DNA from: an uncultured Eubacteriales bacterium
GTDB lineage: Bacteria > Bacillota > Clostridia > Christensenellales > Borkfalkiaceae
Direction: 5' to 3'
NCBI GenBank assembly: GCA_905209085.1
Contig: CAJLRM010000001.1
Coordinates: 328,289-392,288, forward strand
Length of the DNA stretch: 64,000 nucleotides
In this document: piece after piece, positions 15,637 to 37,133 of the stretch
Layout: each line of letters starts with the position of its first letter
Position numbering within the stretch: the first letter of the stretch is position 1
Translations under genes and position numbers: made by a program
The notes under the pieces: model-generated
What the model was told of the DNA's origin: nothing
What the model saw: only the letters and a program-made list of their open reading frames with translations
Databases searched by the model: none

Positions 15637-15650
15637 AAACTCATTCCTCT

Positions 15651-17446: not shown

Positions 17447-17458
17447 GTCCCCAAGGTT
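16300..17458. repeat. ~1.15-kb direct repeat of the Rhs core 3' end (copy in the orphan).
   Basis: >95% identical to 20850..22010. The antisense ORFs 16874..17527 and 21425..22204 are identical for 175 aa. Confidence 0.65.
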
Positions 17459-17506
17459 TCCGTCCGTGTCAATGAATCATATATTAAAAAATGTCACATA
17501 AAAAAT

Positions 17507-17543
17507 AAAAACAGGCTTGTAATATAATTTCAAGCCTGTTTTT
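17507..17543. terminator. Bidirectional intrinsic terminator.
   Basis: AAAAACAGGCTTG-TAATATAATTT-CAAGCCTGTTTTT, a perfect 13-bp stem with T-runs on both strands. It sits between the immunity gene 17644..18144 and the next orphan. Confidence 0.55.
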
Positions 17544-17643
17544 ATGTAAATATTACAAAAATCGCCTTTTATCCAATTTACGCAATAGCCATTTTTATTA
17601 CAAAGAACGCTTTATAATATACTTTACAATAAACAAAAATACT

Positions 17644-20602: not shown

Positions 20603-23600
20603 TTATATAAGTGCATTTTTTAATATTGCAATATAATATTGATAACCACCGCCCAATTGACCATTCAAAGGAATTACTTTTCCTTCTATTAATAACGTTC
20701 CTTTCTTGAGTATATAGGTTGCCATATGTTCTGCGCTATTTTGAGTAGAATCTAAGGCTAACGCTGAAATAGGATTAGCATATTGATTTGGGGTTACCCA
20801 ATGTCCTATAGGATTATTATTCCCATAGTATCGATATACTTTTATATCTTTTTGAGCCATACTCACTACTGCATCATCTCCAAACCCTTTCAACACTTCT
20901 TCATGATACTGTTTTGGCACATATTTGTCAAGATATTCTTGAACAGACATATCCACTTTTTGTGTAGAAGAAGTTTTAATAAACTTTTTAGCTTTCGTCA
21001 CTTTTACAGCAGCCAATAAACCTTTAAAGGCTTTCCATACTGCTATCAATGACAAAGCCACGTCTACTACTGCTATTACCAAAAATAGCAAATTCAACCA
21101 ACTTGGTTCTTTCCAAAACGCCTGACCCGCTTTTATAAGACCGTATACCGCCAAACCCAAAAACACCAAAGACACTACCAGACCGATAATCGCGCCGATT
21201 AAGTGCCCGCTCGGGTCCGCATGGTTTACGGGATTATTCAGACAGTAGCTGTATAGATTCTGTCCCCCAATCGTCGTTAGGTACTCGCTTGATACTATCC
21301 CCACGTTATCCGCGTTGATAAACCGTCTTATCTCCGCGTCATAGTACCGACTCTGTAAGTAGTACAACTTCGTGTCTTCGTCGTAATAATAGCCCTTATA
21401 CCGGAACGGATTGACCCGACCTATATGACTATTATACATCGTATTCTCTGTAATGTCAATACCCTCTTCGTTATAGACCCGGCATTTTCCCCACGCGTCG
21501 TATTCATATCTCGCCGCGATGCTTCCGTCTTCCTTACATACTCTTACGATATTCCCGCTCGTTCCGTATTGGTAATAGTATCTCCCGCTTTCGCTCGTCA
21601 GTCCGATGACCTTCTCTCCCGCGTACAGATAGCGATAGTACTTCGTTTCGCTTCCCTTCGTGATCCGCTCTCCGACTATCTTCCCGCCTACCGTATAATA
21701 CTGATGCGTCCGTCCGCCTTCCTGCTTCTCCACTCGGATATTATTGCTGTCGTATCTGTACGTCGCTATGTTCCCGTACTTCGTCAGCACCCTTCCTCTC
21801 TTCCATTCCAATACGTTCCCACGGTATTCCCCAGGGTTTCCCAATGCGTCGTAGCTGCCCGCAATACTCACTTCTCGACTCGTATTGTTCACCATGTCGT
21901 ATTCCGTGATACTCACAAGACGATTTTTGTTCCCGCTTGCGTAATGGTAACTCTCTTTCTTCTCCCACGTCTTCGAACTATTTGCCTGCGTATACACGTC
22001 ACCAAGGTTTCCGTCCGCGTCGTAACTGTAATAGTGATTCTTGCCGATAAACCCGTTTTCTTCGCTCACCAAACGATTGATATCGTCATAGCTGTATGTT
22101 ACGCTCTTGTTCGCGTCCGTGATCTTCTTGATGTTTCCGTTTTTGTCGTAGTCCGCGCTTTCCGTTCCGTATACATTTTTGCAGCGATACTGAATCGTCG
22201 ATAGATAATTCGTGCTTCCTTCCTGATACGTACAATTACAGCTATTCTTCCCTAACCGATTCTTATATCCGTAGCTTTCATAGAAATACTCCGCAGACGA
22301 GCTTGTTTCAGGCTTCAACCCCTCTTTCGTCAGCCGTCCTAATTCGTCGTATTTCAACGTCAGCGTATCTACCGCGCTTGTTCCCTCTGCTTTGTCATAC
22401 ATTCGGATTTCCTTGATTCGGTTATCCGGTATCACCTCTCCTTCTCCGTTCTTTTCATATTCGTATTGGTAAGAGTGATTCAGGCTAAGCCCCGACAATG
22501 TGTATTTCTCTTTTATTACACGACCGCCTTCGTCCAGTTCGCTTCTGTATTCCACTCCTCCCTCTGACGACGATAACGTACTATAATCAAATTCCCCGTT
22601 CTCTTTATAATTATATCGGTGGTAATACCATTTTTTTGCGTCCGTCGGCGTTCCAAGATCTATCGCCGGCATCTTATCTATCGTTTGATCTATCTCGTCC
22701 AGTTCTTCCCCGTGTTCGTCCGTTTTATAGTACACGCGGTAGCTTTCCACTTCTTCTCCGTATACCGCCTCGCCGTTCACCGTTCCCGTCTGCGTCTTTA
22801 TCTTCCGGCAGATCAAACCGCCTTTCTTATTATAGATCTCCTTGATTGCCGTTCCGTTCCCCAATACCACTTCTTCATAATCATACGTGCTTTCGTCCGT
22901 CGAGCTATACGTACTGTCCTTATAGCTCTTCACCGCTACCACTTCTTCTCCGTTCACATACGTCTTGAGGGCGTTCCCGAATCCGTCGTACGCGTATTCG
23001 TAATTCACTCCGTTCGCTCCCGTATCGATACTCGTCAGATAGCCGAGGTTGTACGAGTAATTCACTCCCACCGTCTGCGTCCGCACCGAGCCCCCAGGCG
23101 TGCTCCTTACCGACACCGACGTGGTGATCCCCAGAAGATACGTATTCGTCTTATCGTAACTGTACTGCACCGTTTGTCCGTTCGGCAATTTTACCGAACT
23201 TAAATTTTCGCTCGACGCATTATAATTCGTCGTCGTATACAGCTCGCTTCCGTCTTCGTCATATCCTCTTTCGTCATACGTATTCCTGATATACTCGTTG
23301 TTTGTATAGCTTTGTCTATGAATAAGCGTTTTATTGACTCCGTTCGCATAATGCGTTTTTTCTTTCGTCACGTTATTATATTTACTCGCGTTCGAGTATG
23401 TATATTCTTTTACGACGCCCCTGAAGTCCGTTTCTTTGATAAGCCGTCCGCTAGCGTCGTATTCGCTTTCCATCGCGAAACTCGCTTTGTCATCGGAGAT
23501 AAACTCCGTCCTTTCCACATTGTCGTCGCGCCTCTTATACAGCCTTATCCTTCCCGATTTATTCACGATTTCCGTGATTCCCGACGCCGCGTATTCGATG

Positions 23601-26600: not shown

Positions 26601-27055
26601 CAAAGAAGCCGCTTATCCCGTTTGCCGAGCAGCTTCCATTCCACCTTATATCCGTCTTTTTCCAGCGTAAACAGCTTTCCGTTCGTCCGTTTGCCGAATT
26701 TTACCCGAACGTCGCTCTGCCTGTTTTCATAGCCGTCGAAATCGTCTTCTTTTTCAAGGCACGCCGGACAATCGCAAAGAGTATTGTCTATGGCGAGATA
26801 TTTTCCCTCCGTTTCGTCGTAATAGTGCACGGGCTCGGTGAAAATCTGCGCCCGATAGCTGCCGTCGCTCATTCTGAAATGCTTTACGTTCTCCTCGCGC
26901 TTCGCCTCGTCCTCAAAGAGCACGATAGGCGCGTCTTTATTTTTCTTTAAAGCTACTTCGTCGTATACCTGCCCCTCCGATTCTTCAAGAATTTCCTCGG
27001 AAGCAAGTTCTTCGTTTACGTTTTCTTCCATGTTTTTAAATTTAATGGTTCCCAT
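20603..27055 (-). CDS. rhs: RHS-repeat polymorphic toxin, 2150 aa. It has an N-terminal domain without a signal peptide, a DNRLRE-like domain, a CBM-like insert, YD/RHS repeats, an Rhs core ending in DPxGL, a TM helix pair and a ~150-aa C-terminal toxin.
   Basis: - Multiple YD repeats and core hallmarks are present: YDAWG, YYLQSRYYDAEIRRFINAD, NPVNHADPSGHL.
- C-terminal to DPSGHL come two hydrophobic helices and the toxin (...VYRYYGNNNPIGHWVTPNQY...).
- The ATG at 27055 has an AAGGAAAAA RBS.
- GC declines from ~48% at the 5' end to ~33% at the 3' end. Confidence 0.9.
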   Translation of the reverse strand: MGTIKFKNMEENVNEELASEEILEESEGQVYDEVALKKNKDAPIVLFEDEAKREENVKHFRMSDGSYRAQIFTEPVHYYDETEGKYLAIDNTLCDCPACLEKEDDFDGYENRQSDVRVKFGKRTNGKLFTLEKDGYKVEWKLLGKRDKRLLCDALNDSCAFLPNGKQRSAETKLSDEIRYNDIAPGTDLQYILSPKRIKENIIVRERQDSYEYKFELKLKNLNVELSEDGQRLELFIQKIDEESGALGKETIFTIPMPYMFDADGKKSGEVTYELERLSGNKFIFSVIADENWINAEGRAFPVTIDPVIETKQKWDSNFCLSRKVTNQKNNKGEYIIDDSGYNCVGDDGYGMFRSYLKFKLPNFEGRKILEATLSLYQIGFDGNVNNPGYFDIHKVTSNWNENTTFKWDNCPSFDNKIYSRVRYSTKKYNTLKIDITKLAKEWENNPNYGLMMKDSFEQQYCDFFSFHNEKTAEDDSEIPQLTINYVENRCRVSDEYQVNNIKRAGTHMVDLWTGRNRLVHEDAGFEDNERLSLSVSHVYNILDKAASYIKTSRNNYTPDLGVGRGWKLNLQQFLFKINTAANGYTDSIGFLYIDQNGDEIVFSESKKWKAVYDGAGNVTDVVYATEYLDEQGKKLRCFETDGELRIKDDKETTLYFRNNELYKIIDRNGDYILLEKGACDGKISKVSDSTGHWATFAYNSLCCLNKITFSDGKVFSYTYDSFGRLTKIGYPDGSESEFHYGEGADSYSLTSVRDCSGYRLKIGYTNGKATSLKDFASNKEISAAGVTAYTAGDGGVSSYSTYKGVVYEKEGKEIVIKYENNTTKVITENGYADNYQWSDSGFCECIYQTKNELNASANKKYVTDVSKYKNFNLFDTYEVRPLALAKNFLKNGSFEGLSDCLEWVPVDETSANRYYGVSVDGNYSLKIQSSYTQKRQLCQTVYASQLKLSKGEGLLLSGYAKADSLPTSGANTSNGTTQDKYSTFSLLAKLIYTDGTSETTEVNFDPFKTDWQFAVKGIVVNDPSKLQRIEVYIDYSYNNGAAYFDRISLTKGNAVYTKGLPRFYTNRDMKTYDISELVGIEYKDNDHIFHKYESVSVKDRKKNYLDILAMQQNPDLIIIDGEVHDGGAEPKRTMLTFKKEGESEKKYSLFDIEYAASGITEIVNKSGRIRLYKRRDDNVERTEFISDDKASFAMESEYDASGRLIKETDFRGVVKEYTYSNASKYNNVTKEKTHYANGVNKTLIHRQSYTNNEYIRNTYDERGYDEDGSELYTTTNYNASSENLSSVKLPNGQTVQYSYDKTNTYLLGITTSVSVRSTPGGSVRTQTVGVNYSYNLGYLTSIDTGANGVNYEYAYDGFGNALKTYVNGEEVVAVKSYKDSTYSSTDESTYDYEEVVLGNGTAIKEIYNKKGGLICRKIKTQTGTVNGEAVYGEEVESYRVYYKTDEHGEELDEIDQTIDKMPAIDLGTPTDAKKWYYHRYNYKENGEFDYSTLSSSEGGVEYRSELDEGGRVIKEKYTLSGLSLNHSYQYEYEKNGEGEVIPDNRIKEIRMYDKAEGTSAVDTLTLKYDELGRLTKEGLKPETSSSAEYFYESYGYKNRLGKNSCNCTYQEGSTNYLSTIQYRCKNVYGTESADYDKNGNIKKITDANKSVTYSYDDINRLVSEENGFIGKNHYYSYDADGNLGDVYTQANSSKTWEKKESYHYASGNKNRLVSITEYDMVNNTSREVSIAGSYDALGNPGEYRGNVLEWKRGRVLTKYGNIATYRYDSNNIRVEKQEGGRTHQYYTVGGKIVGERITKGSETKYYRYLYAGEKVIGLTSESGRYYYQYGTSGNIVRVCKEDGSIAARYEYDAWGKCRVYNEEGIDITENTMYNSHIGRVNPFRYKGYYYDEDTKLYYLQSRYYDAEIRRFINADNVGIVSSEYLTTIGGQNLYSYCLNNPVNHADPSGHLIGAIIGLVVSLVFLGLAVYGLIKAGQAFWKEPSWLNLLFLVIAVVDVALSLIAVWKAFKGLLAAVKVTKAKKFIKTSSTQKVDMSVQEYLDKYVPKQYHEEVLKGFGDDAVVSMAQKDIKVYRYYGNNNPIGHWVTPNQYANPISALALDSTQNSAEHMATYILKKGTLLIEGKVIPLNGQLGGGYQYYIAILKNALI
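20850..22010. repeat. ~1.15-kb direct repeat of the Rhs core 3' end (copy in the main gene).
   Basis: See 16300..17458. Confidence 0.65.
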
Positions 27056-27073
27056 AATTTTTTTCCTTTTTGA

Positions 27074-28135
27074 TTAATTGTTTTTTAATTTGATTTCCAG
27101 TATCTGCGGCTTATCATAATTGTCGCCCGTAGATACCGCGCTGACGCCTTTTTCCTGCCCGCTCTTTATGACGAACCCGGAATTTCGCGGCTCATGCAGT
27201 CTTAAAATATCCCGTAGGATCTCGCTCACATCCATCCTTTCATAGCGGCGGCTGCGCCTCGCCGTATACAACAAGCGGGAAAAAGCGGTCTTCGTGTTCC
27301 AAGTCGACGCGAAACTGCACCAAGGCGCGTCCATTTTATAGCCGTCCAGCCTGCATTCTCCCCCCCATTTCGGCAAATACAACGTCGCTTCTTTGACCCG
27401 ATAAAAATTCAGATCGGCGAAAAGCGTTGTGTCGAAACGCGAATACAGCCATTGTTCCCCGTATTCTTCGGTATTTCCCAAAAATGCGGCGCCGCCGAAC
27501 GCATTATTTTCGTCGGGAAGTTTCGACGCTACCGTGGTATCGAGCACCAGTTTCGGCGCGTACAGAGCGATCTCGAAAAGAATTTCTGTCGCCGCGGCGC
27601 TTTCCACCGTCATTTCAAAGGCTTTTTCTCCCCTCTTCACCCCGTTTACCCGCAGCGGACAAACGCCGCCGCCCGTTTTCCCTATTATCCCGTTCACGCT
27701 CAAAAATGGAGTAAACTCCTCCCGCATCAGCGCGAAACACCCCGCGCTTTCCCGAACGGTTCTTTCCGAACTCGTTTCCAGCGAAAATTTCGTCTTGCTT
27801 TTACCGCAGACGACCGCGATTCCGTTAAACGTCGGCTCTATCGATACGTCGTCCGCAAACGCAATCTCGGCGCTGCCGTAATCGTTGCAAAGGATGACGT
27901 TTTCCTCTGTGGCGGCAATTTCGGCATTGATTCCCTGAAAACGATAGCGCCCGTTTTCTTTCCGCCATTTCGGCAACAGGAGCTTCCCTTCTTTCGAATA
28001 TACGGGCACGCTGCAATAATACGCCGTGATCCCGTCCTCTTCCTTTACGAGCACCCGATAGGGATTCGTGTTTCTCTTTTCTATTTTTAAATTTTCCTCA
28101 CCGCGAATGCGGCGGATCTCCCTTAAAATGTCCAT
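27074..28135 (-). CDS. Hypothetical cytoplasmic protein, paralogous to residues ~50-480 of the downstream Rhs protein, including its DNRLRE-like domain.
   Basis: 353 aa. EDGITAYYCSVPVYSKEGKLLL resembles Rhs SDGSYRAQIFTEPVHYYDETEGKYLAI. WLYSRFDTTLFADLNFYRVKEATLYLPKW resembles Rhs GMFRSYLKFKLPNFEGRKILEATLSLYQ. Its stop lies 18 nt before the rhs ATG. Confidence 0.5.
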   Translation of the reverse strand: MDILREIRRIRGEENLKIEKRNTNPYRVLVKEEDGITAYYCSVPVYSKEGKLLLPKWRKENGRYRFQGINAEIAATEENVILCNDYGSAEIAFADDVSIEPTFNGIAVVCGKSKTKFSLETSSERTVRESAGCFALMREEFTPFLSVNGIIGKTGGGVCPLRVNGVKRGEKAFEMTVESAAATEILFEIALYAPKLVLDTTVASKLPDENNAFGGAAFLGNTEEYGEQWLYSRFDTTLFADLNFYRVKEATLYLPKWGGECRLDGYKMDAPWCSFASTWNTKTAFSRLLYTARRSRRYERMDVSEILRDILRLHEPRNSGFVIKSGQEKGVSAVSTGDNYDKPQILEIKLKNN

Positions 28136-28148
28136 ATTCTTCTCACGC

Positions 28149-28715
28149 TTATCGGCCGTCTTCCCCTTCCAAAGTCAAAGCGACGATGTGCATCAACATA
28201 TTGTCGGGAAAAACAATCTCCCGCACCCGCTCTTGTTTTTCGAGGCTGCAAACGCAGTGATGAAAATAGAAAGGGTGCTTCACCGCGCCCGAGGAGAGAA
28301 AAATTTTCGCGGTACGGACGGCGCTGTACTGAAACATAAAATGCGTGAAAATATCCGCATCCCAGCCATGCGACCAATCGGGCACGGCAACGCGCACCGT
28401 TTCTTCGCCGCCGTCCCCGCAGACGACGGTGAAATTTTCGCAGGTATCTCCCCAATGCGAAAATCCGATAAAATGCAGTTTTTTCGCTTCCGCATCCGCT
28501 TTTACTCTCTGCCTGTCGCACAAGACGTTGTCGAAATTTGAATCCGCGAATCGAAATTCCACCCCGTCGATCGTTTCCTCGCCCCGCAGAGAAAAATTCG
28601 CCTGTAAAATGCAGATATTTTCCAGTCCGTACTCCTCCTCGGTCGGGGGCAGGGAAGCGTACACCAATTTGTGATTGAGCCACGGCGAAAGATCGACCCT
28701 TTCAAATCTTTTCAT
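28149..28715 (-). CDS. Hypothetical 189-aa protein (MKRFERVDLSPWLNHKLVY...), translationally coupled to the upstream BtrH-like gene.
   Basis: The internal ATG at 28715 overlaps the upstream TGA as ATGA. The N-terminal 146 codons of the long ORF 28149..29153 overlap that upstream gene, so the internal start is taken. It is Cys/His/Trp-rich (FIGFSHWGDTCENFTVVCGDGGEE) with no recognised family. Confidence 0.5.
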   Translation of the reverse strand: MKRFERVDLSPWLNHKLVYASLPPTEEEYGLENICILQANFSLRGEETIDGVEFRFADSNFDNVLCDRQRVKADAEAKKLHFIGFSHWGDTCENFTVVCGDGGEETVRVAVPDWSHGWDADIFTHFMFQYSAVRTAKIFLSSGAVKHPFYFHHCVCSLEKQERVREIVFPDNMLMHIVALTLEGEDGR

Positions 28716-29650
28716 GCGCACGCCTCCCACAGACAGTCGTAGACTTTCTCTTCCGTTTCCTTTACGGAATCTATCTTTCTCAGAATTCCGTCCCTCCGCG
28801 TGACGGCGAAAGAAAAATTTTCCTGACGCCACATTTTCCACAGCAGGGAAAGGAGATTCGAATAGCCGCTTATCAGAAAGTCCAGCAGGGCGCTCTTTTC
28901 TTTGCTCTGCGAAAACGCCCGCGTTTCGGAAAGACAATAGAGGGAGGTTCTCATGCTTTGCAGATAATCCGTTATCTTCTCCGATTTTTCTTGCAGTTCT
29001 TTTAGGTCGGAAAGAAACATTCTTTTCAGTTCGCCAAGATTCTTTTCCGAGCTTTTTCTCGACGAAAGCAGCCTGTTCAAATCCATTTGCGACCATAGAC
29101 CGAGGGCACCTTTTTGAACTTTCGCCTTGCGTAAAACGCGGCAGGAAAACCACTTTTCGGGATGACGCTTCCGATACATCCCGTTTGCATACAAGAGATT
29201 ATCCAGAGAAATTACTTTCTCCCGAAATTCGTAACTTCCCCTGTAAGCGTGATCCACCACGTTCGCTTCCCGCGTTTTCAGATCGTAGCCGTAACAAAGG
29301 AGAAAGTGCAGTTCATGCCGTATGCCGAACATTTCGGGGCGGCTTTCGAGATAAAAGCAGTCCACCCCGACGATGACCGGCATTCCCTTATCGATCCGCC
29401 TCTTCAACGCTCTCTTAGAGATATTGCGCGATTTGCAGCGATAGCCCGCCGTCCTTTCAAACTCCCGCGCGCCAAGAATCCCCCCTTCGTCCGCCGAAAA
29501 TCCTTCTTTGGCAAAGACCATTGCGTTTAAAAGGAAGAGTTCCCGATCGACGCCTAAGGCGGACAGTCCCGCGATTAACTGATGATAATAGCAGCTTTTC
29601 AGCCAAAATTTGTTGAACGGTTTTACGCCCTCTATTTTATTTTTTATCAT
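28712..29650 (-). CDS. Papain-like / BtrH-N-like Cys-His enzyme, a putative ACP-dependent acyl- or peptidyl-transferase (paralog 2).
   Basis: 312 aa. It has an N-terminal Cys in FWLKSCYYHQLIAGL and a His in RHELHFLLCYGYDL. The same Cys...His spacing occurs in the paralog 31353..32168. The C-terminal half is a helical K/E-rich region. The 5' end overlaps the stop of ACP-1 by 14 nt. Confidence 0.45.
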   Translation of the reverse strand: MIKNKIEGVKPFNKFWLKSCYYHQLIAGLSALGVDRELFLLNAMVFAKEGFSADEGGILGAREFERTAGYRCKSRNISKRALKRRIDKGMPVIVGVDCFYLESRPEMFGIRHELHFLLCYGYDLKTREANVVDHAYRGSYEFREKVISLDNLLYANGMYRKRHPEKWFSCRVLRKAKVQKGALGLWSQMDLNRLLSSRKSSEKNLGELKRMFLSDLKELQEKSEKITDYLQSMRTSLYCLSETRAFSQSKEKSALLDFLISGYSNLLSLLWKMWRQENFSFAVTRRDGILRKIDSVKETEEKVYDCLWEACA

Positions 29651-29873
29651 CCGCTTTTTCCTCCGCCGCCTTTATGACGTCCGCCACCGTGTTCCAAGCT
29701 CCCATATCCAATTCGTCGAGTTCGAATTCGATTTGAAATTCCTCCTCTATCGCCACCAAGACGGCGACGAAGGAAAGACTGTCCAAACTCAACGCCTTTA
29801 ATTCGCTCTCGGGGGAAACGGCTTCTTCCAGGGCACAGCCTTTTTGAATGATGCTTATAATTTTTTCTTTCAT
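29637..29873 (-). CDS. Acyl carrier protein (ACP-1).
   Basis: 78 aa from the internal ATG at 29873 (MKEKIISIIQKGCALEEAVSPESELKALSLDSLSFVAVLVAIEEEF...). LDSLS is the phosphopantetheine attachment serine motif. Its ATG overlaps the ligase stop as ATGA. Confidence 0.7.
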   Translation of the reverse strand: MKEKIISIIQKGCALEEAVSPESELKALSLDSLSFVAVLVAIEEEFQIEFELDELDMGAWNTVADVIKAAEEKADDKK

Positions 29874-31126
29874 CGCCGTATCTTCTTTCCGCTGGCAGTC
29901 GTTTCCAGCTTCTCCACCTTTTTTATTCTGTTCGGCACGAGATACGGGGGCAGGTTGCGGACGAGATAAGTCCACAGCCATTCGGGCGGGATGCTGCCCT
30001 CGTATTTAAGACAGATCATCTCTCCCATATGTTCCTCCCTTTCGCCGTACACCACGCAATCGTGCACCCCCGCGCATTTCTTCGCCTCGATCTCTATTTC
30101 CTGCGGAAAAATATTGACGCCCGCGCGGATGATCATGTCGTCCTTTCTGCCGTCGATATAGTAATAGCCCTCCTCGTCCGTATGCGCCATATCCCCCGTA
30201 TACAGCCAGCCGCGGCGGATCTTTTCTTTCGTGCGCGCCTCGTCGAGATAGTATCCTTTCATCACGCACGGGGATTTCAACAACAGTTCCCCCTTCTCGA
30301 TCTTCATTTTCACCGCCCCGATAGGTTTCCCCACGCTTCCCGCCTTTTTCACGAACTCTTCGGGGAGCAGGGCGCTCGCGCGCGGACTGTGCTCGGTAAG
30401 GCCGTAGACGTTGTAAAACGCCGTTTGCGGCAGAGCCTCGGAAAGCTGACGCGCGGCGGCTTCCGTCAGTCTTTCGCCGCTGACTGCGGCGGTCTTGACG
30501 GGCAGCGGCTTCCCCTTGACGCTCCTGACGAGCGCCGCGTACAGGGTGGGCGTCGCGCAGAATACGTCTATTTCCTTTTCCGAGAGAAAGTTAGCCAGCC
30601 TCGCGGGCATAAACGACTCCTCGTAAAAATAGATCGTCAGTCCGCTGACGAGTCCGTACAAAAGCTCCCCCGTCAGCACCGCGATATGCACCAAGGGGCG
30701 CGCGATACAGATGCTCTTCATGCCTTCCAGACGAAAATAGGAGGCAATGTATTCGAGATTGGCAACGATATTTTTGTCCGTCAGCACCACGCCCTTAGGA
30801 GTGCCCGTCGTTCCGCTCGTGAACATGACAAACGCGGTGTCGTCGCTTACCTGTCCCGCGTCTTTTACCGTTTCGCAGATATAGTTATACTGTTTCAAGC
30901 CGTAATCCAAAGAAACGGGAACGGCGGCGGCGCCCCCGGCAAGGCATTTTAAAATCGCGAGCGCCTGTTCCTCTCTCGTCCCTCCCTTACAAACTTGCAG
31001 TCTTTTTTCTCCCACCGCATTGTTCCCCCACGAGAGCAGTTCGCCGTAAGTGATTCCCGAATCCGCAAACGCGACGCGCTCCGAATACGGCTTGATTTTT
31101 TCTCTCAGATACTCCCAAAGTTTCAT
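29870..31126 (-). CDS. AMP-dependent synthetase/ligase (ANL superfamily), probably loading the adjacent ACPs in a DltA/DltC-like arrangement.
   Basis: 418 aa. Motifs: MFTSGTTGTPKGVVL (AMP-binding), YGLTE, GWLYTGDMA, GRKDDMIIRAGVNIFPQEIE. It sits between two ACP genes with ATGA overlaps on both sides. Confidence 0.8.
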   Translation of the reverse strand: MKLWEYLREKIKPYSERVAFADSGITYGELLSWGNNAVGEKRLQVCKGGTREEQALAILKCLAGGAAAVPVSLDYGLKQYNYICETVKDAGQVSDDTAFVMFTSGTTGTPKGVVLTDKNIVANLEYIASYFRLEGMKSICIARPLVHIAVLTGELLYGLVSGLTIYFYEESFMPARLANFLSEKEIDVFCATPTLYAALVRSVKGKPLPVKTAAVSGERLTEAAARQLSEALPQTAFYNVYGLTEHSPRASALLPEEFVKKAGSVGKPIGAVKMKIEKGELLLKSPCVMKGYYLDEARTKEKIRRGWLYTGDMAHTDEEGYYYIDGRKDDMIIRAGVNIFPQEIEIEAKKCAGVHDCVVYGEREEHMGEMICLKYEGSIPPEWLWTYLVRNLPPYLVPNRIKKVEKLETTASGKKIRR

Positions 31127-31356
31127 AAATATTTCTCCGTCAACAAGGTCAAATCCTTCAAAGTCAGCAGTTTCTCGGGCTGCAAGTCATCCTCGTCGAA
31201 AGAAAAGGAATACGCCTCTTCTATCGACGCGATGAGAAGCACCAAAGACAAACTGTCCAGTCCGTTCTCTTTCAGCGTTACGGTTTCCGTCAGCTGAGCG
31301 CCCGTCGTTTCCCGCGCCAGATCGACGATCTTCTTTTCGATCTCTTCTCTATTCAT
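31123..31356 (-). CDS. Acyl carrier protein (ACP-2).
   Basis: 77 aa from the internal ATG at 31356 (MNREEIEKKIVDLARETTGAQLTETVTLKENGLDSLSLVLLIASIEE...). It has ATGA overlaps with both neighbours. The upstream 178 codons of the long ORF are antisense-GC artefact. Confidence 0.7.
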   Translation of the reverse strand: MNREEIEKKIVDLARETTGAQLTETVTLKENGLDSLSLVLLIASIEEAYSFSFDEDDLQPEKLLTLKDLTLLTEKYL

Positions 31357-32168
31357 TTCATCGCCTCCGCAATCTTTTTTTCGTATTCCGTTATTTCCTT
31401 TAATTCCTCTTTGAACGCGTCCGCTCGTCTTTCCCCTTTCAGCCGCCGCAGACGGACGTAAAAGTAGAGCTTGTCCAAAAGCAAGATCTCCGCTTTCAAT
31501 AGCCCCGCGATTTTTTCCGAGCCGGAAAAATATTTTTCCAGCCGTTTTCTCGTCACTCGCAGGACTCCCAACGCGCCTTCGAGTTTTTCCGATTCCCGCG
31601 GCGGACAAACAGAGGAAAACGTCTGAGTTCGGATCTTTTTTTCGCAGTCGCTCTCCGTATCCGCGCGCCCGTTTCGAAAAGCGTACGTACAAACGGCGTT
31701 GCCCGAAACTTCCTTCAACCTTTCTTCCGTAAACCGCCCTTCGGAGAGGGGATATTGATTGAGCCAGCAAAGAGAGCCGTCCACGCAGATATAATGATCC
31801 TCCCGCCAGGCTTTGCGCTTGTACTCCGCAAAGAAGGCTTCGTTCACGTGCATCAGGCAGAGATCCTCCTCCCTTTGGTTTTTCAGACATTCCGCCAATT
31901 TCTCCCGCGATCCGGGCACGCCCATCGGAAAGACGGAATAGACGTGCGCGGCGATCCCCGCTTTTTCCGCGGTTTCCTGAATGCGGGGCACCCCTTCGTA
32001 CGCCTCGTACTTTGCCCCTTGCGCAAAGTCGTCAAACACCTGCCCTATCGGAACAAAGGATTCTCCGTACAGTTTGGATACGTCGAAACGCTTTGCCAGC
32101 CACGCCAAAAAATAGCTTTCCACACACGACAGAGCGAGCGCTTCCGTAATTTCCCGTTTAGTGATCAT
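31353..32168 (-). CDS. Papain-like / BtrH-N-like Cys-His enzyme (paralog 1).
   Basis: 271 aa. Cys in ALSCVESYFLAWLAK and His in REDHYICVDGSL, aligning with the paralog 28712..29650. It overlaps the NTase stop by 11 nt. Confidence 0.45.
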   Translation of the reverse strand: MITKREITEALALSCVESYFLAWLAKRFDVSKLYGESFVPIGQVFDDFAQGAKYEAYEGVPRIQETAEKAGIAAHVYSVFPMGVPGSREKLAECLKNQREEDLCLMHVNEAFFAEYKRKAWREDHYICVDGSLCWLNQYPLSEGRFTEERLKEVSGNAVCTYAFRNGRADTESDCEKKIRTQTFSSVCPPRESEKLEGALGVLRVTRKRLEKYFSGSEKIAGLLKAEILLLDKLYFYVRLRRLKGERRADAFKEELKEITEYEKKIAEAMK

Positions 32169-33222
32169 CCTCTTTTCTCTCCTTCAAAAAACGCAGAGGG
32201 TCCAAGCTGCAAATTCGCGTCCGCTCGTCCGCCGTCCAAAGCAAGCGCTTTTTCCCCTCATAATCGATCACTTCGGGCTGTCTTTCCCCGTATTCCTCCG
32301 CGGCCGATTTCAGTTCTTCGTCTTCAAAAATGCGCCCCGTTTGCCCGAGCACCGTACCGATTTCTTTCTGTACGCCGTACTTGAAGGCGAGTTTCTTCAA
32401 ATCGCCCTTGTCGAAGGAGTCCTTTTTCCATAGATAGTAGATGTCCGCAAGTTTATAAAGATCGAGATCTTTTCTCCGCTCCGCCATAAAGTACAGACAG
32501 CTTTCCTTGTACTGATGCAAAATGAGGTGCAGAAAAAACATTTCCTCGTTCGCCACGTACATGGGCACCTTGCCCGCGTATTCTTTGCGCGTCGCTATCA
32601 TCTCCGAAAGCAGAGAGTCCCTCTCTCCCGGCACGTTTCCGAGCGAAAAATTGATGTCCGCCTCTATGAAAGGGAGTTCGGGATTGCCCGTCGTCTTCAA
32701 AAAGGGCGCCGTTTCTCCGCGGTTCATGCGGCGTTTCAGAATTTCCAGACGCGGGAAAGGCTTGATCTTTTTCTCCCCCGGCGCATACCTGCCCTGTATA
32801 AATCCCAGCTTTTTCAATGAATTTTCCACCGCGGTGATACCGTCTTGCTCGACGAGAATATCGATGTCGTTGGAAATTCTCTCTCCGTCCTCATAGATAG
32901 CGCTCTCCTCTTCGGCAACGTTGCACAGCACGCTGCCTTTCAGCAAAATGTGCTCCGCGCCGTCCGCCGCCAGCGCTCGGGAAATCTCCCCGATCGCCGC
33001 GCGCATCGACTGCGTGCGCCGAATTTGCCTCTCGAACGTTTCCGAAAGGAACTTCTCTATTTTTGACGGCAGCTCTATTCGACTCTTTTTCGCCCGGTTG
33101 TAAAATAGCCCCGCGATCTTATGGCAGCAGAGGAAGCCTGTCGTTTCATACCAATCGGTCACCGTTTTGGGATTTTCCCCTTTGAGAACGGACACCACGT
33201 AGTGCAGACTGTTTTCCGTCAT
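32158..33222 (-). CDS. Pol-beta-type nucleotidyltransferase-fold protein (uncharacterised NTase family).
   Basis: 354 aa from the internal ATG at 33222 (MTENSLHYVV...). The motif LLKGSVLCNVAEEESAIYEDGERISNDIDILV fits the hG[GS]...[DE]h[DE]h NTase signature. Its ATG overlaps the kinase stop as ATGA. The 167 upstream codons of the long ORF overlap the kinase gene. Confidence 0.5.
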   Translation of the reverse strand: MTENSLHYVVSVLKGENPKTVTDWYETTGFLCCHKIAGLFYNRAKKSRIELPSKIEKFLSETFERQIRRTQSMRAAIGEISRALAADGAEHILLKGSVLCNVAEEESAIYEDGERISNDIDILVEQDGITAVENSLKKLGFIQGRYAPGEKKIKPFPRLEILKRRMNRGETAPFLKTTGNPELPFIEADINFSLGNVPGERDSLLSEMIATRKEYAGKVPMYVANEEMFFLHLILHQYKESCLYFMAERRKDLDLYKLADIYYLWKKDSFDKGDLKKLAFKYGVQKEIGTVLGQTGRIFEDEELKSAAEEYGERQPEVIDYEGKKRLLWTADERTRICSLDPLRFLKERKEDDH

Positions 33223-33863
33223 TTCGATTCCTCCCGCAAAAGCTCCCTTTCTACGACGGCAAAAGCCTTTTCGGGCTCCCCCTCGGTATCGAGCACGACA
33301 AATCCTTCCCCTTTCGCCATTCCCAGAAATTCCCCCGCGACTCTCAAAAGCAGAGGCTCGTCGAGATGACGATCGCATTCGTCGGGGCGGCTCTTTATCC
33401 GCTCTATCGCCATCAGGGGGTTCGCGTAGGCCAAAAACGCGAGGTCGGGTTTTAAAAGGTGTTTTGCCGCTTCGTAAAACCATTTTTCGTCCCTGTATCC
33501 GCGCGCCAGCATATTTGCCAGCGAAGTGTAGATGTATCTGTCGCAGATCACCGTCTTGCCCGCTTTTAAAGCGGGTTCGATCACCTCGAAGCCGTGCTGC
33601 ATCCTGTCCGACATCGTTAAAAGCTGTACGGCGCGATAGTTGATATCCTCGTGCTTGCAGCAATACATCATCTTTTGAAAGAGTTTGGTCTTTCTCGACA
33701 AATCGGTAGGCTGTTTCACGCACAGGACGCTTCCGATGCCGTTTTTCTCTTCGAGATATTTTTCCGTCAGCGAGATCATCGTCGTTTTTCCCGCGCCGTC
33801 TGTGCCTTCAAAGACGATCAGTTTTCCTTTATACGGATTTTTTCTCAGTTTCAGCGTTTTCAT
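33219..33863 (-). CDS. dTMP-kinase-like P-loop (d)NMP kinase.
   Basis: 214 aa. IVFEGTDGAGKTT is the P-loop and a DRY motif is present. The overall length and order match the thymidylate kinase family. Confidence 0.65.
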   Translation of the reverse strand: MKTLKLRKNPYKGKLIVFEGTDGAGKTTMISLTEKYLEEKNGIGSVLCVKQPTDLSRKTKLFQKMMYCCKHEDINYRAVQLLTMSDRMQHGFEVIEPALKAGKTVICDRYIYTSLANMLARGYRDEKWFYEAAKHLLKPDLAFLAYANPLMAIERIKSRPDECDRHLDEPLLLRVAGEFLGMAKGEGFVVLDTEGEPEKAFAVVERELLREESK

Positions 33864-34401
33864 CTTTTTTTCCTCTCAATACGATTTTTTCTTTTTCCGC
33901 ATCCTCTGCATTTTCCGGCTGCGGCAAAGCCGGGGACGCGAGTTCTTTTTTCTCTTCTTCCGTCGTCCCTGCCGTGGGCGCCTCGTTTTGGGGATTTTCC
34001 CCTTCCGGCTCCTTATCGGCGAACTCTTTGATTTTTTCGAGAAGCTTTTTGTTTGCTTCGATTTCCGGCTCGGTGAGCATCTTCTCCTTTGCGGGAAACA
34101 ATTTTTCCCAAAAGGCGTACAGCGCCAGGCTGAGGCTGCTGGACGATACCCAGAGCGTTACGAACGGCTTGTCTATGCCCGTTTTGCCATAGACCGCCCG
34201 CAAATAGACAAACGTCAGCAGCAACCCGACGACAACGGGCAAAAACACTAAAAACCGCGTCGCTTTCCTTCCGTTTTCCCGCTTTTTCGCCCAGGCCTTG
34301 ATCGGCATTTTTATCAAGCCCGTAAACAGGTTGATCGCAAGCGCAAGAATCGTCGCTTCCAGTCCGTACTCGGTGATCAACTGTAAAATTTTCTCCTCCA
34401 T
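33829..34401 (-). CDS. Small membrane protein with a long acidic/lysine-rich disordered C-terminal tail.
   Basis: 190 aa. It has two or three N-terminal TM helices (ATILALAINLFTGLI, FLVFLPVVVGLLLTFVYL). The C-terminus EPEGENPQNEAPTAGTTEEEKKELASPALPQPENAEDAEKEK is low-complexity. Confidence 0.5.
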   Translation of the reverse strand: MEEKILQLITEYGLEATILALAINLFTGLIKMPIKAWAKKRENGRKATRFLVFLPVVVGLLLTFVYLRAVYGKTGIDKPFVTLWVSSSSLSLALYAFWEKLFPAKEKMLTEPEIEANKKLLEKIKEFADKEPEGENPQNEAPTAGTTEEEKKELASPALPQPENAEDAEKEKIVLRGKKDENAETEKKSV

Positions 34402-34419
34402 TCCTTTTCTCCTCCCCTT

Positions 34420-35670
34420 TTATTCGTAGATGGACCGTATATTTTTCTCGTCCAGCTTCTCCGCCAATCGGACGTTTTCTCTGCCCGCCCGCTCCACCGT
34501 TTCCCGATAGGCGCGCACCTCGTTGTTGCAGACGATCCCCGCGGAAGCGTCCGCAAATATGCCGCAGTCGGGCGTGTTGCGGAGGATATTTTCCGCGATG
34601 ACGTTTCCCTGCACGTTCTCCCCCACCGCGTAAATCCCGCACCCGCTTCGACATTCTTCGGGCGTCATCAGGATTTCCATGATATTTCCGTGGATGACGC
34701 AGTCTTTCGCGCCGTGCTCTATCAGACGCGCATTGCGGCTGGTGGAGGTGATGATATTTCCTCCGATGCTGCTGTTATCCCCGTAGCTCCTTACGCTTCT
34801 GCCGCAGATGGTGTGCGTCGCCAGAATTTTATTGGAGGAGATGCGCGCATACTCGCCCCTGTTTTCCAATCCCACGCTCATGCCCGCCCATTCCCCGACG
34901 ATGTTGTTCGCGCTGATGATAGAATACAGTCCTTCGTTTATGAATCCGAACGCGTGCGCCTCTTCCGTATGTTTGCCGACATTGTGCGTCCCGTTCGCCT
35001 TGACGTTATTTCCGACAAAGCGCCCGAAACGCCCGTTGGTATACACGCCCACCGCGCGCTGCCTCTCGCCGTCGCCGCGGTTTATCGCGTAAATAAAGGT
35101 GTTCTGCAACGAGATGCTGTTGGCGAGATTGTTGTAAAGACCGTACACCGCGCATTCCTTGGGATACTCCTCGGCAGCGCACTCCGCCTTGATATAGCAG
35201 TCGTTCACCACGAGGTTGTCCGCCCGCGTTTCCATATGCGTGTCGAGATTGCCGTTGTTGTAGATCCCCGCTATGCCGAGTTGTTTCTCCGCGTATATCT
35301 CTATGCGGCAATTTTCCACTTTCAAACCGTATGCCGTATTGTAAATCCCGAAAAACTGTCTTTTCGCAGCGGCGGGATTTTGAATATGCACGCGGATCGT
35401 CATATTTCTCATACATACGTTTCGCGCGGTGGGCTGAATGAAAAACAAGCTCCAATCGCTCCCCGTGCTGTCCTCGATTTCCGCATCGATCTCCGCGTCG
35501 CTGCCGTCGATCACGATGTCCGAACGGCAAATATTGATCAGGCTGTTTAAACACATCTTTCCCAATAGAAAGCAGTTGCTTTTTACTCCCCTGATCTCCA
35601 TTCTGCCTGTAAGTCGGATCTCTTTGCCGTTCTCCGTTTCATTGATGCGCTTTTCCAATTCTTTATTCAT
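34420..35670 (-). CDS. Cytoplasmic right-handed parallel beta-helix repeat protein (pectate-lyase/NosD-like fold). First gene of the coupled operon.
   Basis: 416 aa from the ATG at 35670, with an AAGGAGA RBS 6 nt upstream. There are many ~22-aa repeats of the form NxxIxxNxIxG (e.g. CVIHGNIMEIL, GNVIAENILRN). There is no signal peptide. Confidence 0.6.
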   Translation of the reverse strand: MNKELEKRINETENGKEIRLTGRMEIRGVKSNCFLLGKMCLNSLINICRSDIVIDGSDAEIDAEIEDSTGSDWSLFFIQPTARNVCMRNMTIRVHIQNPAAAKRQFFGIYNTAYGLKVENCRIEIYAEKQLGIAGIYNNGNLDTHMETRADNLVVNDCYIKAECAAEEYPKECAVYGLYNNLANSISLQNTFIYAINRGDGERQRAVGVYTNGRFGRFVGNNVKANGTHNVGKHTEEAHAFGFINEGLYSIISANNIVGEWAGMSVGLENRGEYARISSNKILATHTICGRSVRSYGDNSSIGGNIITSTSRNARLIEHGAKDCVIHGNIMEILMTPEECRSGCGIYAVGENVQGNVIAENILRNTPDCGIFADASAGIVCNNEVRAYRETVERAGRENVRLAEKLDEKNIRSIYE

Positions 35671-35755: not shown

Positions 35756-36085
35756 TCAATTCCCGCAGTCGGGGCGCGCAAATTGTCTGATGATCGTCTG
35801 CATCTGCTCTCGTTCCATACCTGCCAGTCCTCCCGCTATCTTTTCGAGAAATTCTTTTTGCTCGCGTTTGAGATATTGTCGCCCCAGATAATACCCCTCC
35901 GCCACGTATACGCCGCCGTAGACGCCCGTCTTCGTATAGATCGGGTAAGATAAGGAAAGCTCCTGAATGTCCCGGCGCACGGTCGATTCGTTGACCGAGA
36001 ACTCGAACGCCAGATTTTCCACTTTTTCATAACGTCTTTCACAGAGTGTTTCGAGGATTCTCTGCCGCCTCTCCAAGGCTTTCAC
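35756..36085 (-). CDS. Small DeoR-type HTH DNA-binding protein.
   Basis: 109 aa. RQRILETLCERRYEKVENLAFEFSVNESTVRRDIQEL matches the DeoR N-terminal HTH. There is no effector domain. Confidence 0.55.
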   Translation of the reverse strand: MKALERRQRILETLCERRYEKVENLAFEFSVNESTVRRDIQELSLSYPIYTKTGVYGGVYVAEGYYLGRQYLKREQKEFLEKIAGGLAGMEREQMQTIIRQFARPDCGN

Positions 36086-36578: not shown

Positions 36579-36608
36579 CCGAACATATGTTCGGATTTTA
36601 TTTTATTA
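36579..36608. promoter_or_regulatory. Perfect 12+12 palindrome, a candidate operator or terminator.
   Basis: AAAATCCGAACA-TA-TGTTCGGATTTT, immediately 5' of the zinc-ribbon ORF. Confidence 0.35.
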
Positions 36609-37133
36609 TACTTCCTTTTTTTTACAATGTCAAGCGAATACGCCCTATCGTTTTGTGAAAATTTCTTCTTGTCTTTTCAATGGAATCGGACTGTCCGAAA
36701 AGAGCCGTAACTATTTTTTTCTCCTGGACAGGATAGTTTTTTCTCAGCCTTCTTACAACCGTTCTTTTTCTGACAAGAAACTTTTTAAAAGGGCAAGACA
36801 AAATTTTCCGCTTTCTATTTTCTATTTTTAGTAAGGAAACGCCGCCGCTTTGTTCTTCGTCGAATTTTTCAAAAATCGATAAAACCTTCGTTCTTTTTGG
36901 ATTTTTCGCTATTTATTCTCGTTCCACGGGAAACGAGAATAAAATTTATAGATTTTCAGCGGAAATTTTTTAGCTTCCGGCAAATAAACTCCCGGATTCT
37001 CTTCCTTTTCCATCCTCCTTGGATAGGCGGAACGGAAGCGGCAATTCCTTGGAAAGAAAAATCCGAGGGCTTCAAATAATACGCGCTCCCCGGATTTTCC
37101 TATTAATAAAGGCTACGGGCTTCCCTACGCGAT

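Follow-up and report, generated by a model that had tools for sequence, protein, structure and literature searches.

The stretch of DNA analysed here, hereafter the window, comprises 64,000 nucleotides (nt) from an uncultured Eubacteriales bacterium (GCA_905209085.1, contig CAJLRM010000001.1, positions 328,289 to 392,288) and harbours a gene for an Rhs/YD-repeat polymorphic toxin that is preceded by a cassette of ten genes, two of which encode acyl carrier proteins (ACPs) and one an adenylating ligase. Thirteen genes, g1 to g13, span positions 35670 to 20182 of the minus strand; g1 to g10 make up the cassette, g12 is rhs itself, and the gene models and junctions were recomputed. Here we describe this locus and its relatives in other genomes, and discuss what the cassette might do for the toxin in the light of the enzymes that it encodes. 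The genes, and the segments of the Rhs protein on which the argument draws, are the following:

34420 to 35670, minus strand: g1, right-handed parallel beta-helix protein of 416 amino acids (aa)
33829 to 34401, minus strand: g2, small membrane protein, 190 aa
33219 to 33863, minus strand: g3, P-loop kinase of the thymidylate kinase family, 214 aa
32158 to 33222, minus strand: g4, NTP_transf_5 nucleotidyltransferase, 354 aa
31353 to 32168, minus strand: g5, putative papain-like Cys-His enzyme of a rare family, 271 aa
31123 to 31356, minus strand: g6, acyl carrier protein 2 (ACP2), 77 aa, with a DSL serine motif
29870 to 31126, minus strand: g7, ANL-superfamily adenylating ligase, 418 aa, with a short N-terminal domain
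29637 to 29873, minus strand: g8, acyl carrier protein 1 (ACP1), 78 aa, with a DSL serine motif
28712 to 29650, minus strand: g9, papain-like transacylase of the CtaG/BtrH/CcbD/AziU3 fold, 312 aa
28149 to 28715, minus strand: g10, AziU2-like subunit, 188 aa
27074 to 28135, minus strand: g11, lineage-specific protein, 353 aa, with a sub-threshold DNRLRE/CBM96-like domain
20603 to 27055, minus strand: g12 (rhs), Rhs/YD-repeat polymorphic toxin, 2150 aa
27032 to 27055, minus strand: tag MGTIKFKN of the Rhs protein, a proposed acceptor or targeting motif
26126 to 26914, minus strand: conserved N-domain of the Rhs protein (residues 48-310), weakly resembling DUF7948
25643 to 25996, minus strand: CBM96 (DNRLRE-type) module of the Rhs protein (residues 354-471), PF24517 match at 2.1e-12, above the cut-off
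20182 to 20562, minus strand: g13, presumed immunity protein, 126 aa, assigned by position

All junctions between g1 and g13 are overlaps or gaps of at most 40 nt (g1/g2 +18, g2/g3 -35, g3/g4 -4, g4/g5 -11, g5/g6 -4, g6/g7 -4, g7/g8 -4, g8/g9 -14, g9/g10 -4, g10/g11 +13, g11/g12 +18 and g12/g13 +40 nt, negative values denoting overlaps). Our own gene models match exactly the tight 13-gene operon drawn in the original prediction, in which one detail has to be amended: the five -4 junctions are indeed literal ATGA sequences, but instead of lying in a row only three are consecutive and the other two stand separately. Terminator-like sites number 27 in the window compared with 22.1 +/- 4.4 in shuffled sequence, i.e. 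no excess, and the scan placed none on the operon strand in any intergenic gap. The ten cassette genes and rhs constitute one tightly packed, probably co-transcribed unit. Its base composition is not uniform; the guanine-plus-cytosine (GC) fraction is 0.49-0.56 in the cassette and about 0.55 in the flanks, falls to 0.39-0.47 in the body of rhs and reaches 0.31-0.38 in the toxin tip and the immunity gene, a profile that agrees with the earlier description of a host-like cassette joined to a low-GC rhs.

Homologous loci were gathered from a scan of one genome per GTDB species, which yielded 15 loci, and from a metagenome scan with g1 that added 52 more, and the proteins of the window were mapped on all of them. 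Fourteen of the fifteen GTDB loci belong to Christensenellaceae, Ca. Scatosoma or uncultured Clostridia/Clostridiales metagenome-assembled genomes (MAGs), and the fifteenth, in Clostridium tepidiprofundi (L028), is a weak match of 48 residues. In about 23 of the 24 distinct loci whose contigs continue, the gene directly after the g1-g10 cassette encodes an Rhs protein and has the same orientation (L011-L019, L021-L025, L033, L037, L039, L041/L045, L044, L055-L057, L062, L064 and L067). This adjacency persists over protein identities of 35-70% and in differing flanks; loci with distant g9 homologs (41-48% identity) retain the same order from g1 to g10 and then an Rhs protein of about 2,000 residues, while their surroundings contain rhamnosidases, genes of conjugative elements or a helix-turn-helix (HTH)/M78 pair. 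It also survives rearrangement, as in L064, where the cassette is split and reordered, and in L041, L045 and L067, where a fused g9-g10 gene has moved upstream of g1. The distance from the last cassette gene to the start of rhs is mostly 6-60 nt (about 560 nt in L023), and rhs possesses a separate AGGAG site. The assembly collection lists the exact g10 protein in 420 blocks; the contigs inspected stem mostly from gut metagenomes and MAGs, and their proteins are annotated as hypothetical, from Clostridia bacteria.

Whether related cassettes are ever linked to rhs was the neighbourhood question raised by the original prediction, and linkage was found in essentially every related locus with a continuing contig; the synteny across 35-70% protein identity likewise bears out its view that the coupling at the 5' end of rhs is old. 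A sceptical reading would have an Rhs locus inserted beside, or hitch-hiking with, an unrelated operon. Rhs genes are prone to recombination, the body and tip of rhs are lower in GC than the cassette, and one locus (L035) retains g1-g8 without an Rhs gene. Against such chance association, adjacency and strand are kept across the whole range of identity, flanks and cassette rearrangements described above, the gaps are mostly as short as 6-60 nt with no intergenic terminator-like site in the window, and an N-terminal tag, discussed below, is specific to the Rhs proteins that are linked to a cassette. Because the synteny is conserved we reject pure co-location; the absence of any functional link is highly improbable and close to refuted, and we hold with high confidence that cassette and Rhs are functionally linked. 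Since the pairing recurs in some two dozen related loci, the cassette probably matures or delivers the toxin.

At the heart of the cassette is a stand-alone thiotemplated set that comprises an ANL ligase, two carrier proteins, the g9-g10 pair and a second probable Cys-His enzyme, g5, with the genes arranged symmetrically around the ligase in the order enzyme-ACP-ligase-ACP-enzyme. The labels that had been given to the kinase, the nucleotidyltransferase, the ACPs and the ligase are confirmed by Pfam and NCBIfam matches (Tmk-like for g3, NTP_transf_5 for g4, ACP for g6 and g8, ANL for g7). Both carrier proteins match PP-binding, g6 at 5.4e-7 and g8 at 4.7e-9; g6 in addition has weak matches to the AmcB and AsbD carrier models, and the best NCBIfam match of g8 is DltC (7e-9, 35.5 bits compared with a cut-off of 68). 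The ligase g7 matches AMP-binding at 1.8e-44, and among solved structures it is nearest to feruloyl- and fatty-acyl-CoA synthetases, MenE and oxalyl-CoA synthetase. As these are acyl/aryl-CoA ligases, its predicted substrate is most likely a carboxylic acid rather than an amino acid.

The enzyme class of g9 is the best defined of the set. It matches BtrH_N at 1.6e-8, and an AlphaFold2 model built from 31 homologs (predicted local distance difference test score, pLDDT, 93.7) has a bipartite fold in which residues 1-175 form strands and helices and residues 181-311 form helices. In a Foldseek search this model retrieves AziU3 (E 1e-7), CtaG (E 4e-6) and CcbD (E 9e-4), and ordinary papain-like proteases rank lower. 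Residues C20, H112, H115 and D97 are invariant among 31 sequences and D133 nearly so, and in the model Cys20 sits at the N-terminus of the helix formed by residues 20-31, as it does in papain-like enzymes. CtaG is a papain-like ligase that works by a ping-pong mechanism and transfers an acid bound to a carrier protein to an amine (Gude et al., PMC12865890); its structural relatives are AziU2/U3, CcbD, BtrH and AsbE (PMC12865890), and CcbD and LmbD employ the same mechanism with a Cys-His-Glu triad (PMC12945683). CtaG, BtrH, AsbE and CcbD are all carrier-protein-dependent amide formers that act on amines (PMC12865890, PMC12945683). A carrier protein and its loading ligase lie immediately beside g9, as g8 overlaps g9 by 14 nt and g7 overlaps g8 by 4 nt. 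On the strength of the model, the assignment of g9 to the Cys-His transacylases of the CtaG/BtrH/CcbD fold is confirmed, and amide-forming activity is predicted. Its partner g10 always adjoins a g9-like gene and is fused with it into a single protein of 503-530 residues in L041, L045 and L067; the g10 family profile matches AziU2/Azi28 (7wuw, 8gs1) at E 1.4e-5, with a DNxxCxGQ motif in common. Given that the g9 model matches AziU3 and the g10 profile AziU2, the two proteins correspond to the two AziU3/U2 subunits. The group-transfer logic dependent on ACPs that had been suggested from gene content is therefore upheld by the folds of the enzymes, and carrier-protein-dependent acyl or amide transfer is likely to be the core chemistry of the cassette.

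The likeness to AziU3/AziU2, the aziridine synthase of azinomycin B biosynthesis (7WUW, 8GS1), deserves consideration in its own right. That enzyme is a two-subunit protein of which g9 matches the AziU3 chain of about 330 residues, and g9/g10 resemble it as a heteromeric pair encoded by adjacent, overlapping and in some loci fused genes. In AziU3/U2 catalysis an activated hydroxyl (a sulfate) is displaced to close the aziridine ring. One could thus imagine that the kinase and the nucleotidyltransferase install a phosphate or nucleotidyl leaving group on the carrier-bound hydroxyl of an amino-alcohol or hydroxy-amino acid, and that g9/g10 then catalyse an intramolecular displacement to give an aziridine or another strained or dehydrated electrophile. 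Such a scheme would give g3 and g4 a role as leaving-group installers, and it is in keeping with AziU3 being the best structural match of g9 and AziU2 the only sequence match of g10. We nonetheless consider it very improbable. The invariant Cys/His/Asp set of g9 looks catalytic and is typical of acyl-enzyme catalysis, and the flanking ACPs and ligase point to acyl transfer; g1-g13 include no sulfotransferase, no LysW-like amino-group carrier protein and nothing of the azinomycin context, with phosphopantetheine-type ACPs in their place; g3 resembles a nucleotide (dTMP) kinase and not a small-molecule hydroxyl kinase; and the linkage to Rhs would be left without explanation.

The second, putative Cys-His enzyme, g5, is a member of a rare family that numbers 215 representatives in a set of 1.84e9 proteins. 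Residues C15, D124 and H125 do not vary among 69 diverse homologs, and the g5 profile weakly matches the C39 double-glycine protease domain (6mpz) over the His motif (E 0.0048). A papain-like nature is thus plausible on sequence grounds, whereas the more specific BtrH-like label that g5 had received is weakly supported: g5 has no Pfam match, and although an hhalign comparison with the g9 family aligns Cys with Cys and His with His, its probability stays below 1% even with the 69-sequence profile. In one same-species locus (L004:6547-7593, GCA_041334705.1) the gene caller reports a 348-aa fusion of g5 and ACP2. This is really a frameshift about two-thirds into g5 that runs on into the ACP frame; either the mutation is real and would inactivate g5, or the assembly is at fault.

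The closest parallel to this enzyme set is the CtaI/CtaH/CtaE/CtaG set of closthioamide biosynthesis in Ruminiclostridium cellulolyticum (PMC12865890, PMC7183216), which follows the same stand-alone, non-modular thiotemplated logic: an ANL-type ligase charges one free-standing carrier with a carboxylic acid, and there is another carrier that is likewise free-standing. The two systems differ in that g9 and CtaG are only about 13% identical, the cassette lacks an ATP-grasp enzyme, a decarboxylase and a thioamide-forming enzyme, g9 has an obligatory AziU2-like partner, and a Tmk-like kinase, a nucleotidyltransferase, a beta-helix protein and a membrane protein are added, with the whole joined to an Rhs toxin gene and not to an antibiotic gene cluster. 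BtrH (butirosin), AsbE (petrobactin) and LmbD/CcbD (lincosamides) carry out the very step that we propose for g9, in which an acyl group passes from a carrier to a cysteine and on to a free amine, and g6 weakly matches the petrobactin carrier AsbD. Their acceptors, however, are small amines (an aminoglycoside, spermidine and a thiooctose), whereas the acceptor proposed for the cassette is a candidate protein N-terminus; in addition, g9 lacks the C-terminal domain annotation of the DUF4872 type.

The candidate N-terminus is that of the Rhs protein. Much of g12 is conventional: it contains RHS_repeat (PF05593, 1.3e-24; TIGR01643, 2.7e-13) and an Rhs-associated core (TIGR03696, 3.4e-19, residues 1852-1951) with a DPSGH motif at 1947 where autoproteolysis is predicted, followed by two transmembrane (TM) helices (about residues 1951-2015) and, at the C-terminus, a toxin of some 135 aa that weakly matches TNT. 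It has these traits in common with Sec-dependent Rhs/WapA-type toxins and with those of the T7SS/LXG and T6SS/PAAR kinds (type VII and type VI secretion systems, respectively), namely the YD-repeat shell, the core with DPxG, a swappable toxin, an immunity gene and orphan cassettes, and its N-domain (33-38% identical among cassette-linked Rhs proteins) and CBM96 module are also common to Sec-dependent Rhs relatives. What sets it apart is the lack of a recognised export determinant. The N-terminus, MGTIKFKNMEENVNEE, is not hydrophobic and carries no signal peptide, and no PAAR, LXG or VgrG match was found in g12; in their stead there are an 8-residue tag and a ten-gene cassette. Secretion-system families likewise gave no match among the scanned open reading frames (ORFs) of the window, which include most of those of at least 280 aa outside the operon (48724-49590 and 61937-63997 excluded). 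The absence of secretion machinery encoded with this Rhs, as initially noted, is thereby corroborated for the features examined.

Every cassette-linked Rhs protein starts with M-G-[T/I/A]-I-K-[L/F/I/M]-K, as in MGTIKFKN and MGIIKLKN; rarer forms begin MS or MD or have R for K, so that the full pattern reads M-[G/S/D]-[T/I/A]-I-[K/R]-[L/F/I/M]-x. After the tag comes an acidic stretch of 40-60 residues that is not conserved (residues 9-47 in the Rhs of the window), and then the conserved N-domain. The tag codons vary synonymously (GGA/GGT/GGG, ATT/ATC/ATA, TTA/TTG/CTT/CTC), from which it follows that the peptide, rather than the RNA, is under selection, and which rules out a nucleotide-level element such as a ribosome-binding site or regulatory RNA. 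Elsewhere the pattern occurs in none of 7,735 Met-started ORF candidates in 1.02 Mb, a count that describes the specificity of the pattern and not an independent significance because the pattern was derived from the same sequences that were scanned. N-domain homologs in cassette-free loci (L030, L031; P0074) begin with a classical Sec signal peptide and continue into a similar acidic linker, so the tag occupies the position of the signal peptide. The most deviant tags, MDTIKLN and MSIIKLGK, are found in the two lineages with fused g9-g10, and in L062, where the cassette has decayed, the tag is lost and the protein starts MKILLGKN. A signal for N-myristoylation by the host was considered and rejected because of the bulky hydrophobic residue at position 6; the consensus of N-myristoyltransferase needs a small residue there.

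From these observations we tentatively propose, with somewhat less than even confidence, that the locus encodes a Sec-independent Rhs toxin with a dedicated accessory module that acylates an N-terminal tag and is confined to gut Clostridia of the Christensenellales type. The ligase g7 would adenylate a carboxylic acid and load it as a thioester onto the carrier proteins g6 and g8, and the papain-like enzymes would accept the acyl group at their catalytic cysteine before transferring it to an amine in ping-pong fashion, like CtaG and CcbD. The acceptor amine would most likely reside on the MG[T/I]IK[L/F]K tag, either as the alpha-amine of Gly2 after removal of Met or as Lys5 or Lys7; that the tag is the acyl acceptor is itself a possibility that we rate at slightly below an even chance at best. 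Held on a flexible acidic linker, the acylated tag could then serve as a membrane anchor of the toxin for signal-peptide-independent export, retention at the surface or binding to the target envelope, while g1 and the CBM96 module of the Rhs might recognise or cleave glycans at the surface of the producer or the target, and g2, the Tmk-like kinase and the nucleotidyltransferase would act in the same process. The most far-reaching part, that the acylated tag rather than a signal peptide or known secretion system drives membrane targeting and the export or delivery of the 240-kDa Rhs, we regard as unlikely as it stands.

There is a precedent for the principle, as CdiC, which is encoded at the toxin locus and depends on acyl-ACP, lipidates a polymorphic toxin: class IV CdiA is its target, and the lipidation is needed for full killing (PMC8510554). 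Likewise HlyC and CyaC of the RTX toxins are toxin-locus enzymes that lipidate a toxin from acyl-ACP, and in these systems the toxin requires lipidation to be fully active or to bind its target. The likeness of the cassette to these systems is functional and hypothetical. No HlyC-family domain is present in the operon according to Pfam and NCBIfam and the enzyme family is unrelated; moreover, the HlyC and CdiC systems draw on the cell's own acyl-ACP and operate in Gram-negative bacteria with type I or type V secretion systems (T1SS or T5SS), whereas the cassette brings its own ligase and carriers and has no known secretion system.

Several points weigh against acylation of the tag. The first concerns the modification itself: the idea that the Rhs is the acceptor, put forward in the original prediction, has gained a concrete candidate site in a conserved tag at the position of the Sec signal, but acylation of the Rhs is still a proposal. 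Within the tag, L041/L045 have an Asp at position 2, where it would prevent the removal of Met, and neither Lys5 nor Lys7 is strictly invariant. Signal-less N-domain homologs also exist without tag or cassette (P0078, P0080 and P0087, the surroundings having been checked for P0080 only). As to the chemistry, a single ligase must serve two carrier proteins, the kinase and the nucleotidyltransferase are left without a role in acylation, the papain-like fold of g5 is putative, and how an acylated protein of 240 kDa would pass the membrane is not explained by the model. The comparative data contribute further objections. L035 retains g1-g8, lacks g9, g10 and Rhs, and continues into unrelated genes. 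The trio of BtrH_N-like, AziU2-like and g1-like genes (36% identity to g1) in L027:9857-12756, L078:8253-11245 and L080:2561-5460 is found without ligase, ACP or Rhs, between a sugar-utilisation operon and genes for an extracytoplasmic function (ECF) sigma factor and a BspA-type leucine-rich repeat (LRR) surface protein, so the g9/g10-like enzymes have at least one other substrate. Finally, two deeper-branching loci (L084:1-12742 and L085:1-12777) look like an uncharacterised natural-product pathway: they encode a nucleotidyltransferase, a g5-like protein, three to four g9/g10-like pairs, two ACPs and a ligase, with nitroreductase, DUF4886 and CYTH proteins as well as a 45-aa ORF encoded downstream of the thiotemplate genes, and no Rhs, g1, g2 or g3 occurs within the available sequence (1-12742 and 1-12777).

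These last loci lend themselves to a rival account, according to which the cassette is a non-canonical thiotemplated gene cluster of the closthioamide/petrobactin/butirosin type that makes a small molecule and the Rhs itself remains unmodified. The product, for instance an acylated amine that possibly includes a nucleotide part derived from the kinase and the nucleotidyltransferase, would be co-expressed with the Rhs and may aid delivery by permeabilising or marking target cells, or act as a second weapon in the same competition island. All characterised relatives of g9/g10 (CtaG, BtrH, AsbE, CcbD and AziU3/U2) act on small molecules, L084 and L085 combine multiple g9/g10 pairs with tailoring-type enzymes and no Rhs in view, two carriers and two transacylases would fit a CtaG-style elongation with donor and acceptor, and a Tmk-like kinase and a nucleotidyltransferase suit nucleotide chemistry better than protein lipidation. 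On the other hand, adjacency to Rhs in about 23 of 24 loci despite rearrangements is tighter than two co-regulated but independent weapons would need, the cassette contains no transporter, self-resistance gene or amino-acid-loading enzyme, and the conserved tag that replaces the signal peptide is left unexplained. We judge a small-molecule product to be the strongest alternative, though rather less likely than not.

The first two genes of the cassette bear on a further alternative to acylation of the tag. The g1 protein is a right-handed beta-helix of the tailspike/polysaccharide lyase/epimerase fold without signal peptide or TM segment; no sequence match was found for it in the PDB, and by fold alone its class is that of a generic pectin-lyase-type beta-helix. 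Alignment and hydropathy show that g2 begins with hydrophobic helices, continues into a variable, charged linker and carries a conserved K-I-[I/V]-L-R-G motif in its C-terminal part. In the window this motif stands near the g2 C-terminus (33829-33900), after the non-conserved charged linker and ahead of a short variable tail, and could be where the papain-like enzymes process or recognise the protein. The architecture of g2, small with TM helices and a charged tail, is suggestive of a holin and no more than that; a holin assignment was tried and dropped, as Pfam, PHROGs and the PDB returned no match. In L079:148-8903 a g1-like gene (40% identity) lies 41 nt ahead of the gene for a 2,461-aa Rhs with the N-terminus MKHTIKNN. 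No thiotemplate genes are located in between, but as the contig begins only 147 nt upstream of g1 they may be present farther upstream.

It has thus to be considered that the module is mainly an export or surface-display device, in which the tag is a recognition signal for a route via g2 and g1 while the thiotemplate enzymes acylate a polymer of the cell envelope in the manner of Dlt, either letting the toxin pass or creating a ligand for CBM96. The position of g1 and g2 at the head of the module would suit such a device, as would the tight association of g1 with Rhs, the tightest of any cassette gene (g1 and Rhs in L079; g1, g2 and an Rhs remnant in L058), the general holin architecture of g2 with its hydrophobic helices and charged tail, DltC being the best named match of ACP1, the combination of a CBM96 module in the Rhs with the polysaccharide-enzyme or tailspike fold of g1, and the lack of any other secretion system among the scanned ORFs of the window. 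The missing parts speak against it, however. Apart from the lack of a holin-family match for g2, the operon has no peptidoglycan hydrolase, which together leave a holin-type release akin to the type 10 secretion system (T10SS) without its components, and there is no ATPase or channel-forming protein, and g1 has neither signal peptide nor TM segment. With regard to Dlt D-alanylation, the cassette lacks MBOAT/DltB and DltD, the DltC match of ACP1 is below the cut-off, and the ligase is nearer to acyl-CoA ligases than to DltA. We therefore deem an export or display device of this kind unlikely.

The remaining enzymes, g3 and g4, are difficult to place. The g3 protein matches Thymidylate_kin (PF02223) at 2e-25 and scores 90.7 bits with TIGR00041 (cut-off 83.25), its profile matches a solved Tmk in the PDB at 4e-20 over residues 15-208, and the P-loop GTDGAGKTT and the DRY motif are invariant. 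Judged by these signatures it looks like a bona fide nucleotide (dTMP) kinase. It is also the most conserved gene of the cassette, with orthologs 64-73% identical, and since it travels with the cassette a housekeeping role is unlikely. Ahead of the P-loop is an N-terminal extension, MKTLKLRKN (33837-33863; consensus MxxLKLKxN), that resembles the Rhs tag MGTIKFKN; the likeness may be due to chance or reflect a shared recognition motif. The nucleotidyltransferase g4 matches NTP_transf_5 (PF14907) at 2e-24, and a sequence search of the PDB found no solved relative.

The lineage-specific g11, located between cassette and rhs, had been described as a paralog of the Rhs N-terminus. We find no detectable homology between the two (BLASTP E 0.42, hhalign probability 0.2%), the only common feature being a DNRLRE/CBM96-type motif, and the paralog assignment is accordingly withdrawn. 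The match of g11 to NF033679 (4.5e-6) is below the cut-off of that model. The gene is confined to the species of the window and a 32% identical relative in L062; among the other loci it is listed for L049 and L062 only.

Downstream of the Rhs body the locus shows the variability expected of a polymorphic toxin. The toxin tip and the small ORF in the position of g13 vary together among the same-species loci L001-L006, and g13, which has no family match, is presumed by its position to encode the immunity protein. Beyond it lies one further feature:

12807 to 20031, minus strand: orphan toxin cassette array with PT-HINT toxins (1e-13 to 1e-26), an Rhs 3' fragment and small immunity-like ORFs

PT-HINT orphans are located at 12807-13982, 14593-15495, 18165-18743 and 19129-20031, each followed by a small immunity-like ORF, and several orphan cassettes start within the TM-helix segment after the DPxGH motif (e.g. 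VVIAVVDVVLSAIAVWQAFKAL), which suggests that this segment is a recombination joint. The last 1.4 kb of rhs (core end, TM helices and toxin; 20621-22021) is repeated at 16070-17470, also on the minus strand, with 92.7% identity. This orphan 3' fragment, 4.5 kb downstream of rhs and with a variant toxin tip, could, to judge from its sequence, readily serve to switch the toxin through homologous recombination. In a metagenome contig of the same species (L006:11661-16985) the Rhs is cut to 1,774 aa and followed by unrelated genes (arsR-like, glycoside hydrolase family 2 and radical S-adenosylmethionine), the toxin tip, the immunity gene and the entire orphan array being deleted.

Upstream of the operon two candidate regulatory features were identified:

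35756 to 36085, minus strand: DeoR-type HTH regulator, 109 aa, 85 nt upstream of g1 (HTH_DeoR match at 2.5e-9)
36605 to 36633, minus strand: sigma-70-type promoter match, perfect in 12 of 12 positions (TTGACA-17-TATAAT), upstream of the HTH gene and the operon; a consensus match only

The DeoR-type gene is kept in the same-species loci L001-L010, and other lineages have different regulators. A second perfect sigma-70 consensus match lies within rhs at 21459-21431, just upstream of the region of the toxin tip. The wider flanks of the operon are, in the scanned parts of the window, devoted to carbohydrate utilisation and include glycoside hydrolases, parts of sugar ABC transporters, a glycyl-radical enzyme pair and a ROK protein.

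Each of the parts described here comes from a known family; the combination is new as a polymorphic Rhs locus with an unprecedented conserved accessory cassette. A literature search covering Rhs with ACP or BtrH, Rhs acylation, NTP_transf_5 and Rhs in Clostridia found no description of such a system, the 2012 catalogue of polymorphic toxins makes no mention of acyl carrier proteins, acyltransferases or thymidylate kinases, and database entries label the cassette proteins as hypothetical.

The module is common in the human gut. How Rhs toxins without Sec, T6SS or T7SS determinants leave cells of the Gram-positive type is an open question, to which the module offers a conserved genetic handle. 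Should the cassette make a small molecule instead, it would represent a natural-product pathway of the gut that is widespread, uncharacterised and obligately tied to a protein toxin. If, on the other hand, the toxin is acylated by the cassette, the reach of the newly recognised papain-like thiotemplated ligases would widen from natural products to protein modification, and the CtaG/BtrH/AziU3 enzyme class would have its first protein substrate in the Rhs. Toxin-activating lipidation would then reach from the RTX and contact-dependent inhibition (CDI) systems of Gram-negative bacteria to the Clostridia by way of an unrelated enzyme family. Were the acylated tag also to drive export without a signal peptide, the module would constitute a new mechanism, a bacterial counterpart of acylation-dependent unconventional secretion.

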